Shown here in pieces: positions 58,294 through 63,955 of a stretch of 64,000 nucleotides of DNA. The translations under genes were made by a program, and so were the position numbers. The notes beneath the pieces are model-generated. The model worked only from the letters and a program-made list of their open reading frames with translations, made no database searches and was not told the DNA's origin. Source of the DNA: a phage. Each line of letters starts with the position of its first letter. Positions within the stretch are counted from its first letter, which is position 1. The stretch lies in sequence record OZ346212.1; one strand, 5' to 3'.

Positions 58294-58644
58294 TCAGTAG
58301 ATGTTTTGTTTAATCTCTATTCCAAACTTCTTGAATGAGTCAGCAGCAAGCATAAATTTACGAGCTGCCGATGGATTAGAAGTATGCACGAAAATAATCA
58401 CGTTGTCAATAAGTGGTGGCTTTCCGAATACAAGTTTCTCCTCTAGCGCAGAGAAGCAGTCGTACCCTTCAAGCACTTCACCTAGATCATTGTCAAAATA
58501 CCACTCAGATACGCGTCTGTAGAGCTTTCTCTTATCATTAAGAAAATCCATAAACTCAGAAGAATTCTTTAGCCACAGAGCGTCTGGGAGTCCATAATCT
58601 GACGGATCTCTAAAATCATCAAGCCACACAATCCACTTCTTCAT
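58294..58644 (-). CDS. hypothetical protein
   Basis: ORF track. Confidence 0.5.
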   Translation of the reverse strand: MKKWIVWLDDFRDPSDYGLPDALWLKNSSEFMDFLNDKRKLYRRVSEWYFDNDLGEVLEGYDCFSALEEKLVFGKPPLIDNVIIFVHTSNPSAARKFMLAADSFKKFGIEIKQNIY

Positions 58645-59576
58645 TGCATATAGTCCTCGTTGTGGAAATAGTAGTCCAGTATCTCACGACGCTCCTGCTC
58701 TAATAAGCAATTCCACACATCTTCTGTATAGTTGCTACGAATAAATTTTACCATACCGTAAAACTCTTCGTCAACACGTTTAAAGATATCATCATCCCAA
58801 ATCTTCCAAGCTTTACCCCTCATTACTGCCTTCCGTGCCAGATAGTATGGAGACTTGATCTTCAGCTGCAGATCATAAGGGTAGTAAGGCTTACGAATCA
58901 TATACCCTTCACCTCTTGTTTCTGCAGCTAATTCTTTTGCATAGCTGAACGGAATTTCACGCACAGTGTTAGGACGTTTTGCACCAAGGTATTTGGCAAT
59001 CCCATCTAAAGCTGCTTCTGGTAGCATTATTCCAGAATCATTATATCTGCAACCTATCAAATATGCGCCATGGTCTTCTTGAACAATATGCGGATCTGAA
59101 GGGTGACAAATTTCAAACATGAATGTCATGTTTTCATTGCCCATAACCTTCTTGATAAGATCTAAATTACCACATTGCTCTTGGATGGTTTCCTTTGCAA
59201 GGTTACAATATGGAGAATCAAGAGACCCGGTTGTTGAGAACAATAGGTCACCTTTATGAGATGATACCACACCAAGGAATCCGTTCTTTTTCTCTACCGC
59301 AGTCACAAGCTTATTGTCAGGCAGGTTGGTGGAGTTTTCTCCCAAGTTAAACACTTTTGTGAAGGGCCATGCCACAACATTTCCTTCATTACCTACAACA
59401 ATGCCTCGGCACTCCAGTAAACGAGGGGACAAATGCCATAAATTGTTGTAAAATACTTTTCTAGCATATTTATAGATCTTTAACCCGAGATCTGGGTAAT
59501 ACCTACTGGTTACAAGACCTTTGTCAACTAGGTCGTCTGCATTAAAATACTTCATTATATGTTCCTCATTTGTCAT
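58641..59576 (-). CDS. RNA ligase (nucleotidyltransferase superfamily)
   Basis: Motif I VEKKNGF (KxNG), motif IV EGYMIRK, motif V LKIKSPYY; alternative start at 59555 has the better RBS. Confidence 0.6.
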   Translation of the reverse strand: MTNEEHIMKYFNADDLVDKGLVTSRYYPDLGLKIYKYARKVFYNNLWHLSPRLLECRGIVVGNEGNVVAWPFTKVFNLGENSTNLPDNKLVTAVEKKNGFLGVVSSHKGDLLFSTTGSLDSPYCNLAKETIQEQCGNLDLIKKVMGNENMTFMFEICHPSDPHIVQEDHGAYLIGCRYNDSGIMLPEAALDGIAKYLGAKRPNTVREIPFSYAKELAAETRGEGYMIRKPYYPYDLQLKIKSPYYLARKAVMRGKAWKIWDDDIFKRVDEEFYGMVKFIRSNYTEDVWNCLLEQERREILDYYFHNEDYMQ

Positions 59577-59619
59577 TTTGTCAGTCTATCCTGCCACACA
59601 AATAACCTAGTGTCAACAC

Positions 59620-59648
59620 TTGAAATTAACAAAACAGTTAGGTATACT
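59620..59648 (+). promoter_or_regulatory. sigma70-like promoter (TTGAAA-N17-TATACT)
   Basis: In the divergent intergenic region. Confidence 0.5.
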
Positions 59649-59676
59649 ACCGTTGAAATTAAAACGGAGGGTCGCT

Positions 59677-60087
59677 ATGTCTAAAATGCTATATATCGTG
59701 CGTGGTCTACCAGGGTCTGGCAAATCAACACTGGCAAATGAGCTATCTTTAGAGGGTCTGTATCCACATTTTGAGAACGACATGTTCTGGTATGACGATG
59801 ACGGCAATTACAACTGGGATGCAAGTAAAGTAACACTCGCAGCAAAATGGTGCAAAGATAACGTAGAAGATATGATGCGTATGGGATACGACCGTATCGT
59901 GGTAAGTAATACGTTTACAAAAGAAAAACATGTGCAGGAATATGTTGACATGGCAATCACTCACGGGTATAGTTATACCGTGATCGTGGTTGAAAACCGC
60001 CACGGTAATAAAAGCATTCATGATGTTCCAGACAAGGTTGTGGATCGTATGGAACGCCAGCTTAAAAACTGCATTAAACTTAAATGA
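59677..60087 (+). CDS. polynucleotide kinase-like P-loop kinase
   Basis: MLYIVRGLPGSGKSTLA (cf. T4 Pnk GCPGSGKST); start moved to ATG 59677 after RBS ACGGAGGG. Confidence 0.65.
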   Translation: MSKMLYIVRGLPGSGKSTLANELSLEGLYPHFENDMFWYDDDGNYNWDASKVTLAAKWCKDNVEDMMRMGYDRIVVSNTFTKEKHVQEYVDMAITHGYSYTVIVVENRHGNKSIHDVPDKVVDRMERQLKNCIKLK

Positions 60088-60094
60088 GGAATGT

Positions 60095-60649
60095 ATGAAA
60101 TACTTTGTAACAAGCGACACACACTTTCTCCACCAGCGGGTCATGGAGTTTGATTCATGTCAAAAACACAGATCTCAGTATGATCACAATCTTGACAGTA
60201 TGAATGCAGGAATCATCGCCGAGTGGAACTCTGTTGTGTCACCTGCAGACACTGTGTTCCACTTGGGAGATATTGCGTGCACTAATGATAAGAATATCAA
60301 CAACTTACTTCCAGATATTCTAAATATGTTGAACGGACATATTATTCTTGTTCGTGGCAACCATGACACAAGGACGACTGTCAGAATTATGAAAGAGTTC
60401 GGTCATGAGGTTGTAGATTATTACGAGCTTCGCCACAACAAGAATTTGATCTGTATGAGCCATTACCAGTTTGCAAAGTGGAACAGAAAGCCTCACGGAT
60501 CAGTCCAACTGTTCGGTCATGCTCACGGAACCACACAACAGTTGTTTGGCAGGCAGCTTGATGTCGGTTGGGATGTGTGGGGGAGACTCTTACCATTAGA
60601 AGAGGCATACCGTATTGCAATGAGTTTTGATATTGACAGCAGGGAGTAA
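60095..60649 (+). CDS. calcineurin-like metallophosphoesterase
   Basis: DTHF, GDIACT, VRGNHD, GHAHG motifs; start moved to ATG 60095. Confidence 0.8.
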   Translation: MKYFVTSDTHFLHQRVMEFDSCQKHRSQYDHNLDSMNAGIIAEWNSVVSPADTVFHLGDIACTNDKNINNLLPDILNMLNGHIILVRGNHDTRTTVRIMKEFGHEVVDYYELRHNKNLICMSHYQFAKWNRKPHGSVQLFGHAHGTTQQLFGRQLDVGWDVWGRLLPLEEAYRIAMSFDIDSRE

Positions 60650-60696: not shown

Positions 60697-61047
60697 ATGA
60701 AAGATGGGGATAAGCTGCTATATCTTAAAGTCCCCCTTGAAATACTATCTATGTCAAAAGTTTTGAATGACACAACTGGGGAGGTTGTTGTTCTTGACTT
60801 GTATGACAAGATCGTATACTGCTACCTGCACAACTGGTATAAGCTTGGAGGAAATTCACGCTTCACACCAAGCACAAGGAAAATTGCAGCAGATGTTGGG
60901 ATAAAGAAAACAAAAGCAGCAGCGTGCGTTAAAACTTTAGAATGTGCAGGAGTGGTTGAAACATCCACACAAGGGAGAGGTAAAAGATGCACATTTTCCA
61001 AAGTTTTGCCACCAGAAGAAGTTATTCGGATGTCAACAACTGGTTAG
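60697..61047 (+). CDS. HTH DNA-binding protein (possible initiator/regulator)
   Basis: RBS AAGGAGA; helix-turn-helix-like STRKIAADVGIKKTKAAACVKTLECAGVVE. Confidence 0.5.
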   Translation: MKDGDKLLYLKVPLEILSMSKVLNDTTGEVVVLDLYDKIVYCYLHNWYKLGGNSRFTPSTRKIAADVGIKKTKAAACVKTLECAGVVETSTQGRGKRCTFSKVLPPEEVIRMSTTG

Positions 61048-61122
61048 ACCAGTAAAAACTTAAATATCTGTACTATAAGGATTCGTATGTTTTATGTTCG
61101 CCATGGAACGGATACTATTAAC

Positions 61123-61203
61123 TGTCCGTGATACGGACACTACTGTCCGTCACGCGGACACATCTGCCCGTAATACGGACACTAACTGTCCGTGATACGG
61201 ACA
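61123..61203. promoter_or_regulatory. array of four 17-bp palindromic sites (TGTCCGTgatACGGACA) at 21-22 bp phasing
   Basis: Sites at 61123, 61144, 61165, 61187; followed by a ~120-bp AT-rich tract. Confidence 0.65.
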
Positions 61204-61329
61204 CATAAAGAATATAACTAAAATAACTAAATAATAAAAAATAAAAGATCTAGTACTTATGGTACTAAGTACATATACTTAACTTATGTAGAATATACTA
61301 GATCCTAAGTACCATGTTTTAAATTTATT

Positions 61330-61600
61330 ACTTACTATGGGCAGTGTCGGCCCTTCATTGGCACTCGCCTACGAGGGGGCGAGATGCCGGGCCTCCTTGG
61401 CGCACACAATAACAGAAGTTCATACATGCAGGTCTGTTAACATGTGTGGGAGCGAAGCGATAGCGCAGGCCAAAGGCCGAGCACTGATGTGGACCACCGA
61501 CGAAAGCTTGCCAGCGCCGTAAGGAGTCGGTTGAGAGTCTCCCGCGCGAGCTTGGATGAAGTTTATGTGTGGAAACTGACAAGAAGGCCCCTAAATCGCT
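61330..61600. ncRNA. GC-rich island, candidate structured RNA
   Basis: Local GC jump; only overlapping both-strand ORFs without RBS; several short hairpins. Confidence 0.25.
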
Positions 61601-61708
61601 CCACAGCTATATAAACTATACCAGGTAATGCAATCGCACCAGTTTGATAGAAAAGCTCGTTACAAAGCGATACAGTGAGTTTTTCTATAACTTGAAGAGG
61701 AGGCAGCT

Positions 61709-62287
61709 ATGGGTTCACGCAAAGATGACCGTGAAAAGATTGCAAAACGTTATCAGAATGAAGAACAGATGGAGAAAACTTTCAAGTGGAAGCCAGGTTT
61801 CCAGCGTAATCATTCTAACGCTCGTGATCGTAAGCATCCGGATAAGTGGCTAACACCGCCAAATGATGGCATGCAGGTTGGGGATGAGAAGGAGATGTCG
61901 CCTGGAAAAGATGGCAACTACATTCGCACTAAGGACGCTGGTCCAAAGGATGACAGCTATCTTGTAGATAAGGTTCTTGATGGTATCAATGTAGATGTTG
62001 ACACTGCACGAAACCTTTTTCTTGGGTGGTATCGCACAGGTTTTTTCGACATCAAGGCTATTCGTCGTGTTTGTGATATTAAAAAGTCTGCATATGATGA
62101 CGACTCGTTACATCGCACCCTGAGACAATATTCAGAAAGATATGGTCATCCGGTTATCACTCTTGACGATGTTAACGAAGTGATGTATCATGCAGAGGTT
62201 GTTGCAGGAAGATTCGGTGATGCATATCTTGATATCCTTTCTGCAAAGGATGAGGTAATGTTAAATAAGATTTACTATGAACGCTGA
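61709..62287 (+). CDS. hypothetical protein
   Basis: Strong RBS AGAGGAGG. Confidence 0.55.
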   Translation: MGSRKDDREKIAKRYQNEEQMEKTFKWKPGFQRNHSNARDRKHPDKWLTPPNDGMQVGDEKEMSPGKDGNYIRTKDAGPKDDSYLVDKVLDGINVDVDTARNLFLGWYRTGFFDIKAIRRVCDIKKSAYDDDSLHRTLRQYSERYGHPVITLDDVNEVMYHAEVVAGRFGDAYLDILSAKDEVMLNKIYYER

Positions 62288-62805: not shown

Positions 62806-62829
62806 GGTTGTTTTCGTGTATCATGATGA

Positions 62830-63092
62830 ATATCCAATTTAAAGATGAATTTGATGGCTTTATCTCCGGATGCTTTGAAACAGGGTTCGGAGAAGGCTGA
62901 GTTCCCCTTAGAGGGCTTGATAGTGCACCACACTTAAAATGGTAGGGGCAGCCAGCACATGACGATGTGACCCCAGCCAACCTGTAATAAGGTCGAGCCA
63001 AAGTGCGGTAATGGGCTCTGGTAACCCACTTGTTGGGTCTTGCTGGTCCAGGACGCTGGACAAGTCGCAGGGAATACCACCCTGCGGCGAAC
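62830..63092. ncRNA. GC-rich island, candidate structured RNA
   Basis: GC-rich, overlapping short ORFs on both strands, no RBS. Confidence 0.2.
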
Positions 63093-63121
63093 TTGACAAT
63101 CAGTATTTGCTATGATAAAAT
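63093..63121 (+). promoter_or_regulatory. sigma70-like promoter (TTGACA-N17-TAAAAT)
   Basis: Read from sequence. Confidence 0.55.
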
Positions 63122-63149
63122 CCACCTATCACGTGATAATGGAGGAAAC

Positions 63150-63584: not shown

Positions 63585-63659
63585 GCCCTGTTAGCTTAGT
63601 GGATAAAGCAGCGGCCTTCTAAGCCGTTGACACTGGTTCGAGTCCAGTACGGGGTGCCA
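63585..63659 (+). tRNA. tRNA-Arg (anticodon TCT)
   Basis: Cloverleaf folded by hand: acceptor GCCCTGT/ACGGGGT, D-stem GCTT/AAGC, anticodon loop CTTCTAA, T-loop TTCGAGT, encoded CCA. Confidence 0.8.
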
Positions 63660-63663
63660 AATT

Positions 63664-63750
63664 GGGGAGTTATCCCGTAGAGGTAGCGGTGTAGACTGTA
63701 AATCTATTGTCATTGCGACTCGGGTGGTTCGACTCCACCACTCCCCACCA
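63664..63750 (+). tRNA. tRNA-Tyr (anticodon GTA)
   Basis: Acceptor GGGGAGT/ACTCCCC, anticodon loop CTGTAAA, long variable arm, T-loop TTCGACT, encoded CCA. Confidence 0.8.
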
Positions 63751-63864
63751 AATTTATATTTTTAGATGCATAAATAATACAGATAATGGCATTGATATTT
63801 ATCGTCGTTTATACTAGTCACTAACTGCTCGAAAATCAGTGTCATTATCAGTATTATTTATAAA

Positions 63865-63955
63865 GGAGGGTAGGGAGCAATGGTGCTCAATCGGTCTTGA
63901 AAACCGTCCCGTTGAGGATGACTCGATGATGGTTCGATTCCATTACTCTCCGCCA
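63865..63955 (+). tRNA. tRNA-Ser (anticodon TGA)
   Basis: Acceptor GGAGGGT/ACTCTCC, anticodon loop CTTGAAA, long variable arm, T-loop TTCGATT, encoded CCA. Confidence 0.7.

Follow-up and report, generated by a model that had tools for sequence, protein, structure and literature searches.

In ColE1 (RNA II) and at the T4 origins oriF and oriG (R-loop RNAs), a folded non-coding transcript lies by the unwinding region and is needed in cis. The G4-type ssi signals and the G site of R1, located downstream of oriR, are hairpins of one strand that are recognized independently of the initiator, and the helper P2 and its satellite P4 share a cos site. In the work of Kreuzer and Alberts (1985-86), T4 infection reportedly led to the replication of plasmids that carry a T4 origin and to their packaging in concatemeric form; this serves here as an analogy only. 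We describe a GC-rich island at 61330-61600 of the phage sequence record OZ346212.1; the window is the whole 64,000-nt stretch of this phage DNA that was analyzed, and all coordinates are positions within it (position 1 being its first letter). The source phage is rV5-like (Vequintavirus) by its genome matches, and the island is, as judged from comparison with relatives, the core (61342-61576, + strand) of a conserved non-coding multi-hairpin element of ~240-300 nt. About ten 13-kb circular plasmids or contigs of E. coli carry a mosaic homolog of this element, and we infer that the element is placed in a replication-origin region.

The element resembles ColE1 RNA II and the T4 oriF/oriG RNAs in that a folded element lies beside an AT-rich block, and the packaging of T4-origin plasmids parallels the satellite behavior proposed below. 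Unlike the ColE1 and T4 origin RNAs, to which it has no sequence or Rfam similarity, the phage element has no promoter that could be found, and it is preceded by an iteron/initiator module that is absent from ColE1. A G-rich tract, possibly favoring R-loops as at R-loop origins, occurs in some of the plasmids only. The element is comparable to ssi signals and the G site as a group of hairpins on one strand, spanning at most a few hundred nt and following an origin that needs an initiator (a putative one in this case), but it differs in its conserved G.U pairs and in a + strand folding that is favored as RNA. The upstream module resembles lambda and iteron-plasmid origins in its 4-5 repeats (20-22 bp each), in the AT-rich block beside them, and in a neighboring initiator-like gene of the winged-helix (wHTH) type, although those origins lack a GC-rich structured counterpart and the putative initiator here has only 116 aa. 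P2 and P4 offer a parallel in their shared cos site, since here too the DNA homology between a phage and a small element lacking packaging genes is confined to a short non-coding stretch; in contrast to cos, it is stem complementarity and not duplex sequence that is kept, and the element is modular and differs between plasmid types. The T4 stable RNAs (species 1 and 2) are comparable insofar as a non-coding RNA candidate of a few hundred nt is found in a tRNA-bearing phage, but the element is 2 kb from the tRNA cluster, has no tRNA-like fold, and is accompanied by an origin-like module and satellite-like plasmids.

Conserved pairing in a non-coding element

The GC content of 61330-61600 is 0.561, compared with a mean of 0.428 across the 64 kb (standard deviation 0.033 in 271-nt windows; z = 4.05), and no other 271-nt stretch of the window attains this value. 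The flanks are AT-rich (GC 0.33 at 61050-61329 and 0.40 at 61601-61708), so that the island is indeed GC-richer than its surroundings, as the original prediction had it. The island sits in a 660-bp intergenic gap (61048-61708) that was left empty by most annotators; the genes that bound it, for the 116-aa winged-helix protein and for a 192-aa protein, are both encoded on the + strand. The features of the fold and its 3' flank are as follows:

61342-61576 (+): structured core, equal to the GC island, supported by RNA minimum free energy, pair counts, and conservation
61342-61486 (+): 5' domain, in which the long-range helix P0 encloses the hairpins P1b/c and P2
61342-52 with 61475-86 (+): P0, long-range helix
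61360-61388 (+): hairpin P1b/c, inside P0
61421-61448 (+): hairpin P2, inside P0
61349-53 with 61389-93 (+), P1a, and 61468-78 (+), P3: alternative local helices that compete with P0
61487-61493 (+): AUGUGGA, the motif most widely kept (phages, type-A and type-B plasmids)
61496-61531 (+): hairpin P4, ACCGAC/GUCGGU, with the 24-nt loop GAAAGCUUGCCAGCGCCGNAAGGA
61535-61572 (+): 3' motif GAGNCUCCCGCGCG and the G.U-rich hairpin P5 (61542-53 with 61559-72)
61577-61640 (+): variable 3' extension with CCCCUAAAUCGC and the near-palindrome GGTAATGCAATCGCACC, 83-94% identical among phages
61641-61708 (+): leader and Shine-Dalgarno sequence of the downstream gene, 93-100% identical even in the most divergent phage

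Pairs were counted in an alignment of 18 sequences under a nine-helix model drawn for this analysis, in which 97.7% of the cells are paired. There are 7 doubly changed pairs, compared with 0.6 in column shuffles (0/500) and 0-3 with slid partners, and the covariation in relatives that had been named as a check is therefore present as compensatory changes in several helices. In the two blocks shared by the phage and plasmid L008, 10 of the 15 differences fall in five compensated pairs and 5 in loops, while none breaks a pair. P1 changes from GGCA-CUCGCC/GGCGAG-UGCC in the phage to GUCA-CUCUCC/GGAGAG-UGAC in this plasmid, with one G-C to U-A double change in each of P1b and P1c, and P4 changes from ACCGAC/GUCGGU to GCUGCC/GGCAGC in plasmids, with three of its six pairs doubly changed. 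Amongst the phages, the terminal pair of P0 (61342:61486) is C-G in 3 variants, U-A in 12, and U.G in 1; a U.G pair of P2 is C-G in IMGVR; and the pair 61551:61561 occurs as C-G, U.G, and U-A. The pair 61496:61570 identified by RNAalifold is A-U in 14 variants and G-C in Aya and IMGVR, the most divergent phages. In Murica and rV5, 18 nt are deleted and a perfect stem (CACACAUG/CAUGUGUG) remains. Outside the core, the small AU-rich hairpin at 61609-61619 has A-U to G-C and U-A to C-G changes, and the leader at 61641-61708 contains a stem (AGAAAAGCUC/GAGUUUUUCU), both as seen by eye. Together, the compensatory changes support selection on the element for base-pairing, in few independent lineages.

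The unpaired parts are also conserved. The P4 loop GAAAGCUUGCCAGCGCCGNAAGGA is invariant except at N, its sole change (GUAA to GGAA) keeping the GNRA form, and GAGNCUCCCGCGCG is kept in phages and type-A plasmids, with slight variation in IMGVR, phiWec196, and two type-B plasmids. RNAalifold pairs GGAG of the P4 loop with a downstream CUCC and GCGC with GCGC, and P4 together with these pairings possibly forms a pseudoknot. One alternative to P5 is this pairing with the P4 loop, which is of the pseudoknot type, and another is a closing helix of 61494-97 with 61569-72. The models thus offer alternative architectures in two places, with P0 or P1a/P3 in the first and P4 plus P5, a pseudoknot, or a long hairpin in the second.

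The island contains three mutually overlapping open reading frames (ORFs) at 61337-61522 (+), 61355-61582 (-), and 61444-61614 (+), the last of which is annotated as ORF78 in rV5. When 17 distinct phage variants were compared, stops or frameshifts were seen to break the first two in most of them. The third is open in 14 of the 17, but its variable columns (18/19/16 by codon position) have no codon periodicity, the differences visible in its translations alter the amino acid, and the plasmid homolog has no counterpart of it. A protein gene was thus rejected for all three ORFs, in agreement with the earlier view that there are only overlapping ORFs on both strands and no credible gene; ribosome-binding sites upstream of the + strand ORF starts were likewise not evident by eye, although no formal test was made.

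The region was matched by 119 phage records at 87-100% identity, all rV5-like (Vequintavirus), and the element is present in all 119, i.e., in every rV5-like genome found. In other genera of the Vequintavirinae, a search for the element and the 116-aa protein returned nothing beyond the same 119 records, whereas homologs of the tail protein occur in 376 phage records. Searches of IMG/VR and metagenomes with an 18-19-nt core pattern returned only rV5-like contigs, contigs of the 13-kb plasmid type, and chance matches in GC-rich genes, and a looser gapped pattern gave ~99 matches in the genome collection, equal to the chance expectation, and 2 chance matches in IMG/VR. The core changes about 3-fold less than 4-fold sites in the distant relatives Aya and IMGVR (8.5% vs 25-29% for phage Aya; 16% vs 38% for the contig L118). 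The matching records include 18 that bear the label 'Campylobacter phage' (MG0656xx), although their identity to rV5-like phages of E. coli is 95-99% in this region; these labels are probably wrong, or the lysates were contaminated. The searchable literature on a non-coding RNA or origin of rV5 contained nothing relevant beyond the 2013 genome paper.

At gathering thresholds, Rfam identified only two tRNAs (63585-63745) in the whole stretch and nothing in the island, and a permissive scan of 60900-61900 gave rli43 as the best match (22.5 bits compared with a gathering score of 100), which was read as chance. The plasmid and divergent-phage versions of the element also had no Rfam match. The three tRNAs that ARAGORN located (Arg, Tyr, and Ser; 63585-63955) are all outside the island, so a tRNA, tmRNA, or tRNA-like element was rejected. 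Both programs, including the Rfam scan that had been suggested, agree with the original prediction, in which the island could not be folded into a tRNA or assigned by eye to a known family. Its link to the tRNA region of the phage was not supported: the tRNA cluster is 2 kb from the island with no obvious connection.

Origin-like setting and plasmid homologs

The layout at 60697-61340 resembles the lambda origin (wHTH protein, iterons, and AT-rich block) and is a probable origin. Together with the gene downstream of the element, it comprises:

60697-61047 (+): 116-aa winged-helix (wHTH) initiator-like gene, rV5 gp075
61119-61204: four 21-22-bp direct repeats, each with a dyad (CTGTCCGTnnTACGGACA), iteron- or operator-like
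61205-61340: AT-rich tract (61205-61247) and AT-rich nested palindromes (61248-61316), leading into the element
61709-62287 (+): 192-aa gene, rV5 gp073, matching phrog_12226 (unknown function)

The 116-aa protein matches phrog_12838 'replication initiation protein' (E = 5e-80) and, more weakly, phrog_8102 and phrog_428, while its match to Pfam HTH_36 is just below the Pfam cut-off. In RefSeq, rV5 gp075 is labelled as a replication initiation protein. The gene has the same distribution as the element, occurring in the same 119 phage records. A repeat search placed the repeats at spacings of 21, 21, and 22 bp, and they are nearly invariant among phages; the array thus has the direct repeats (≥3-4) at helical spacing beside an AT-rich block that define an iteron array.

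L118 (IMGVR_UViG_3300010279_000001), a divergent contig of the rV5-like group, keeps the element at 84% identity. In its equivalent upstream region (819-1610), however, the wHTH protein is a different one of 143 aa and the repeats, five in number, are unrelated; an AT-rich tract again leads into the element, and the initiator and iteron region of L118 is not alignable with that of OZ346212.1. The plasmids have their own iteron families upstream of the element (at least two types, 5-7 copies), and an AT-rich tract lies directly before the element in L118 and in plasmids of the L014 type as well. In the phages and most of the plasmids examined, the element therefore follows a lineage-specific module of 4-7 iterons and an AT-rich block, with an initiator-like gene in the phages. 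An exchangeable, lineage-specific set of initiator and iterons combined with a conserved folded module is as expected for an origin.

When 5,426 complete E. coli genomes were searched by sensitive blastn, the matches were on circular plasmids of 13.2-13.7 kb and on one 39.6-kb record that carries the element in three places and may be a trimer. The family occurs in 7 of the 5,426 genomes and is always plasmid-borne; the chromosomes had 0 matching places in this search, which ruled out a host-derived fragment. The plasmid records and metagenome contigs of this family are:

NZ_CP020521.1 (L010), CP148565.1, NZ_CP035869.1, NZ_CP178698.1, CP134895.1, NZ_CP043822.1, NZ_AP045055.1, NZ_JBUCKS010000006.1, NZ_CP074841.1: plasmid records
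L125 and L130: metagenome contigs of 13.9 and 15.5 kb

The plasmids encode an HK97-type major capsid protein, a Dit-like/tail-tube initiator protein, a Neck1/tail-completion protein, a tape-measure protein, several helix-turn-helix (HTH) proteins, and a weakly Rep/O-like wHTH protein, and they hold ~2.9 kb of repeat-rich non-coding DNA. Identities of their proteins to rV5 are 50% for gp048, 45% for gp056, and 26% for the tape-measure protein gp049. No terminase, portal, sheath, or tube gene was found on the plasmids. Because they carry rV5-type virion genes and no terminase or portal, the 13-kb plasmids look like satellites of rV5-like phages, and no description of rV5-linked satellite plasmids was found in the searchable literature. 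The phage and the plasmids share the blocks 61343-61397 and 61487-61554 at 84-89% identity, compared with 70-76% at the DNA level for homologous genes, and the element is the only non-coding similarity between them.

The plasmid versions are mosaics of hairpin modules that are present, absent, or reordered and are punctuated by UGUGUGG(G/A), of which AUGUGGA at 61487-61493 is one copy, and the G-run of this motif is often the 5' strand of the next stem. Three adjacent mini-hairpins of the plasmids (L008, L015, and L016) keep their pairing although the stems differ in sequence from plasmid to plasmid (e.g., GUGCC/GGCAC, GUGCU/AGCAC, and GUCAC/GUGAC). In type-B plasmids (L015 and L159-L161), P4 is replaced by a different hairpin (GUCCGGAU...AUCCGGAC), and these plasmids retain AUAAUGUGGA, a hairpin related to phage 61450-61466, the ...CGCGCG motif, and the 3' extension. 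The counterparts of the phage 3' extension in plasmids are CCCCUAAAUGGCC and, inverted, GGTGCAATTGCATTACC: the phage 17-mer GGTAATGCAATCGCACC (61624-61640) is the reverse complement, with one mismatch, of L008 1383-1399 (GGTGCAATTGCATTACC), which is centered on the palindrome TGCAATTGCA. These two sequences may be a candidate binding site of a dimeric protein in opposite orientations.

Several further observations concern these repeats and the region upstream of the plasmid element. TGTGTGG occurs 26 times in the 64 kb compared with 9.3 expected (0/100 shuffles reach 26), with no strand polarity in the phage, and comparison of UGUGUGG by eye with the DnaA box, Chi site, and primase site gave partial matches only. 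In plasmid L010, TGTGTGGG with ≤1 mismatch occurs 30 times compared with 8.9 expected, and its exact copies switch strand across the iteron region. A G-tract (GGGGGAAUGGGGAGGG...GGGG) lies just upstream of the element in several plasmids and could form a G-quadruplex or R-loop. On the - strand of L014, opposite to the folded strand of the element, terminator-like hairpins with U-runs (1483-1511 and 1398-1420) lie at the border between the AT-rich/G-tract region and the hairpin array.

The 192-aa protein encoded downstream of the element has no match in Pfam or PDB. A 50%-identical homolog of this gene occurs in a DNA ligase/DNA-metabolism context without the element, and the gene is for this reason not tied to the element. 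As a small terminase, it was rejected because of the lack of a family or PDB match, its few homologs, and the position of the distant homolog among DNA-metabolism genes.

Possible roles of the element

Folded as RNA, the + strand of the core reaches -91.6 kcal/mol (z = -2.40; 1/200 shuffles as good) and is better by 12 kcal/mol than the - strand (-79.7 kcal/mol, z = -1.6). As DNA, the two strands are equal (-43.2 kcal/mol for + and -41.7 for -; z values close to -1.9 and -2.5). Three of the four plasmids tested (L008, L014, and L015) also favor the + strand as RNA, by 13-21 kcal/mol over the - strand and with z of -3 to -7. The series from wobble to Watson-Crick pairs (C-G, U.G, U-A) is workable on the + strand only, and GNRA loops are retained in the element (GAAA; GUAA to GGAA), with CCCUUCGGG loops in the plasmid modules. 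We consider that the molecule is probably RNA, give single-stranded DNA (ssDNA) a distinctly smaller share of our confidence, and leave a minor remainder to other readings.

The upstream iterons and AT-rich block and the sharing with satellite-like plasmids point to a cis element of an origin or helper-satellite system rather than to a stable RNA of the T4 kind. The explanation that we tentatively prefer, while rating it somewhat short of an even chance, is an origin-associated cis element that would depend on structure and be kept by satellites to exploit their helper. The initiator would open the AT-rich block, and read-through from the upstream operon, a possible source of + strand transcription of the element, would yield a folded + strand RNA; alternatively, the exposed + strand itself would fold. 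The replication machinery of the phage would then prime or load on the conserved fold, whatever initiator and iterons lie upstream, and the plasmids would keep the element so that helper machinery replicates them after infection, enabling headful packaging. A more far-reaching proposal, which we hold to be doubtful, is that the element is the cis 'handle' of a new helper-satellite system for strictly lytic rV5-like myoviruses, read by its structure and not by its duplex sequence. The module would in that case be copied from or shared with the helper origin, and the helper would replicate the satellites and in this way bring about their packaging.

Several observations weigh against the preferred origin-associated cis element. 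Few independent events, namely the split between phage and plasmid and two divergent phages, account for most of the covariation, and between very close phages the rate of change in the element equals or exceeds that at synonymous sites. The stretch 60900-61800 was found to have neither a sigma70-like promoter nor an intrinsic terminator; in the plasmids, the clear sigma70 promoters come after the element, and terminator-like hairpins lie at its 5' edge on the - strand. The short hairpins have 168 Watson-Crick pairs among 169, as suits DNA, in a set that is biased because it was chosen by eye. The 'replication initiation protein' label of the 116-aa protein reflects remote homology, and the repeats could be operators of a transcription regulator. 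The initiator-like proteins of the phage and the plasmids have no detectable pairwise similarity (E = 0.58), the iterons of plasmid L008 are several hundred bp from the element, and the skew analysis in the rV5 genome paper (2013) identified only switches of transcription direction and no origin here.

A trans-acting stable RNA, processed from a polycistronic + strand transcript and acting as a decoy, sponge, anti-defence factor, or means of helper-satellite cross-talk, would account for the covariation, the G.U states, and the folding advantage of the + strand as RNA, and its position beside an origin-like module would be coincidental. The GNRA/UUCG-type loops fit such a molecule, as do the invariant single-stranded AUGUGGA, the 24-nt loop of P4, and CCCGCGCG as potential binding sites, the recurrent UGUGUGG(G/A) between modules, which resembles recognition or processing sites, and the tRNAs 2 kb downstream. 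We nevertheless regard it as unlikely, if well short of negligible, given that it leaves the iteron and AT-rich module upstream (in phages and most plasmids) unexplained, that the module content differs greatly between plasmids, which is unusual with one defined partner, and that there is no Rfam relative and no promoter or terminator of its own was found. No published or annotated promoter of rV5 lies between gp075 and gp073 either. Thus, of the 'possible stable RNA' first suggested for the island, the structured, non-coding, RNA-favored character is borne out, whereas a discrete stable transcript is not, because no sigma70 promoter or terminator was found around the element. The fold may instead act as ssDNA, in the manner of ssi or the G site: the opened + strand would fold and a primase or primosome would lay the first primer on it. 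That the element comes straight after the iterons and AT-rich block agrees with this possibility, as do the nearly exclusive Watson-Crick pairing and tri-/tetraloops of the short hairpins and the folding of both strands as DNA with z of about -2. The oligonucleotide d(GCGAAGC) is an unusually stable DNA mini-hairpin, and GCGAAGC is found at 61452-61458 and again in plasmid L015. A primase-helicase of its own is encoded by rV5 (rV5 genome paper), which also favors an ssDNA signal. Several helices, on the other hand, need conserved G.U pairs or change by way of G.U, which is weak as G.T in DNA, the + strand has an advantage as RNA and none as DNA, the possible pseudoknot-type pairing is more typical of RNA, and primases of the T7 type require only short recognition sites; on balance, we find an ssDNA signal rather unlikely.

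Two explanations concern packaging and gene regulation. The element might be a pac-type region that the helper terminase recognizes and that satellites without terminase genes have copied. In favor of this reading, it is the sole non-coding DNA common to phage and plasmid, as the cos site is for P2 and P4, and no terminase or portal was detected on the plasmids. The terL gene is ~4 kb from the element, and the rV5 genome is circularly permuted (rV5 genome paper), which implies headful packaging. A pac or cos site is read as duplex DNA, however, so that its sequence and not the complementarity of its stems should be conserved, whereas the stems here change sequence yet keep pairing. Type-B plasmids moreover lack the 24-nt loop and the P1 hairpin, and no terminase small subunit was identified nearby, with the 192-aa gene standing in a DNA-metabolism context in a distant relative, and we judge a pac-type region improbable. 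Still more improbable, to the point of being hardly credible, is a cis-regulatory 5' leader (riboswitch-, attenuator-, or antiterminator-like) of the 192-aa gene or its operon. The element is co-oriented with and directly upstream of this gene, followed by the near-invariant 68-nt leader, and its alternative helices (P0 vs P1a/P3; P4/P5 vs a long hairpin) could act as a switch. In the plasmids, by contrast, the element is separated from the first gene by strong sigma70 promoters, which places it outside the leader of that mRNA, a homolog of the 192-aa gene exists without the element, and there is neither a terminator-like hairpin with a U-run nor a match to a riboswitch family.

Neighboring features and implications

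A second GC-rich, ORF-poor island lies at 62880-63100 (intergenic region 62806-63149; GC ~0.55). It has no Rfam match and an unremarkable RNA fold (z = -1.05) and is not shared with the plasmids. It is followed by a sigma70-like sequence (TTGACA-17-TAAAAT) and a 112-aa gene with an Arg-rich, AT-hook-like N-terminus (MADTTKKRRRRGRP...). Directly upstream of the origin-like module, the phage encodes genes of the RNA-repair type at 58641-60649, namely a T4 Rnl1-like RNA ligase (- strand), a P-loop kinase/PNK-like protein, and a metallophosphoesterase. The rV5 genome paper describes a 2.6-kb stretch (rV5 104013-106618) with 'no observable ORFs', which by coordinate mapping should lie at ~18.8-21.4 kb of the window, where there are only short overlapping ORFs on both strands and no tandem repeats.

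Phages of the rV5 type are widely isolated and are used in phage cocktails against E. coli. The region described here offers three leads for this group: a candidate origin region, in which the conserved folded element is combined with iterons, an AT-rich block, and an initiator-like gene; a structured non-coding family that is new and has no equivalent in Rfam; and small E. coli plasmids that resemble satellites of a virulent myovirus. If the element is indeed a shared recognition module, the satellite would parasitize the replication or packaging of a lytic phage by means of a folded nucleic-acid signal. The element could then be used to construct origin plasmids or transduction vectors for rV5-type phages, and it would provide a marker for satellite contamination of therapeutic lysates.

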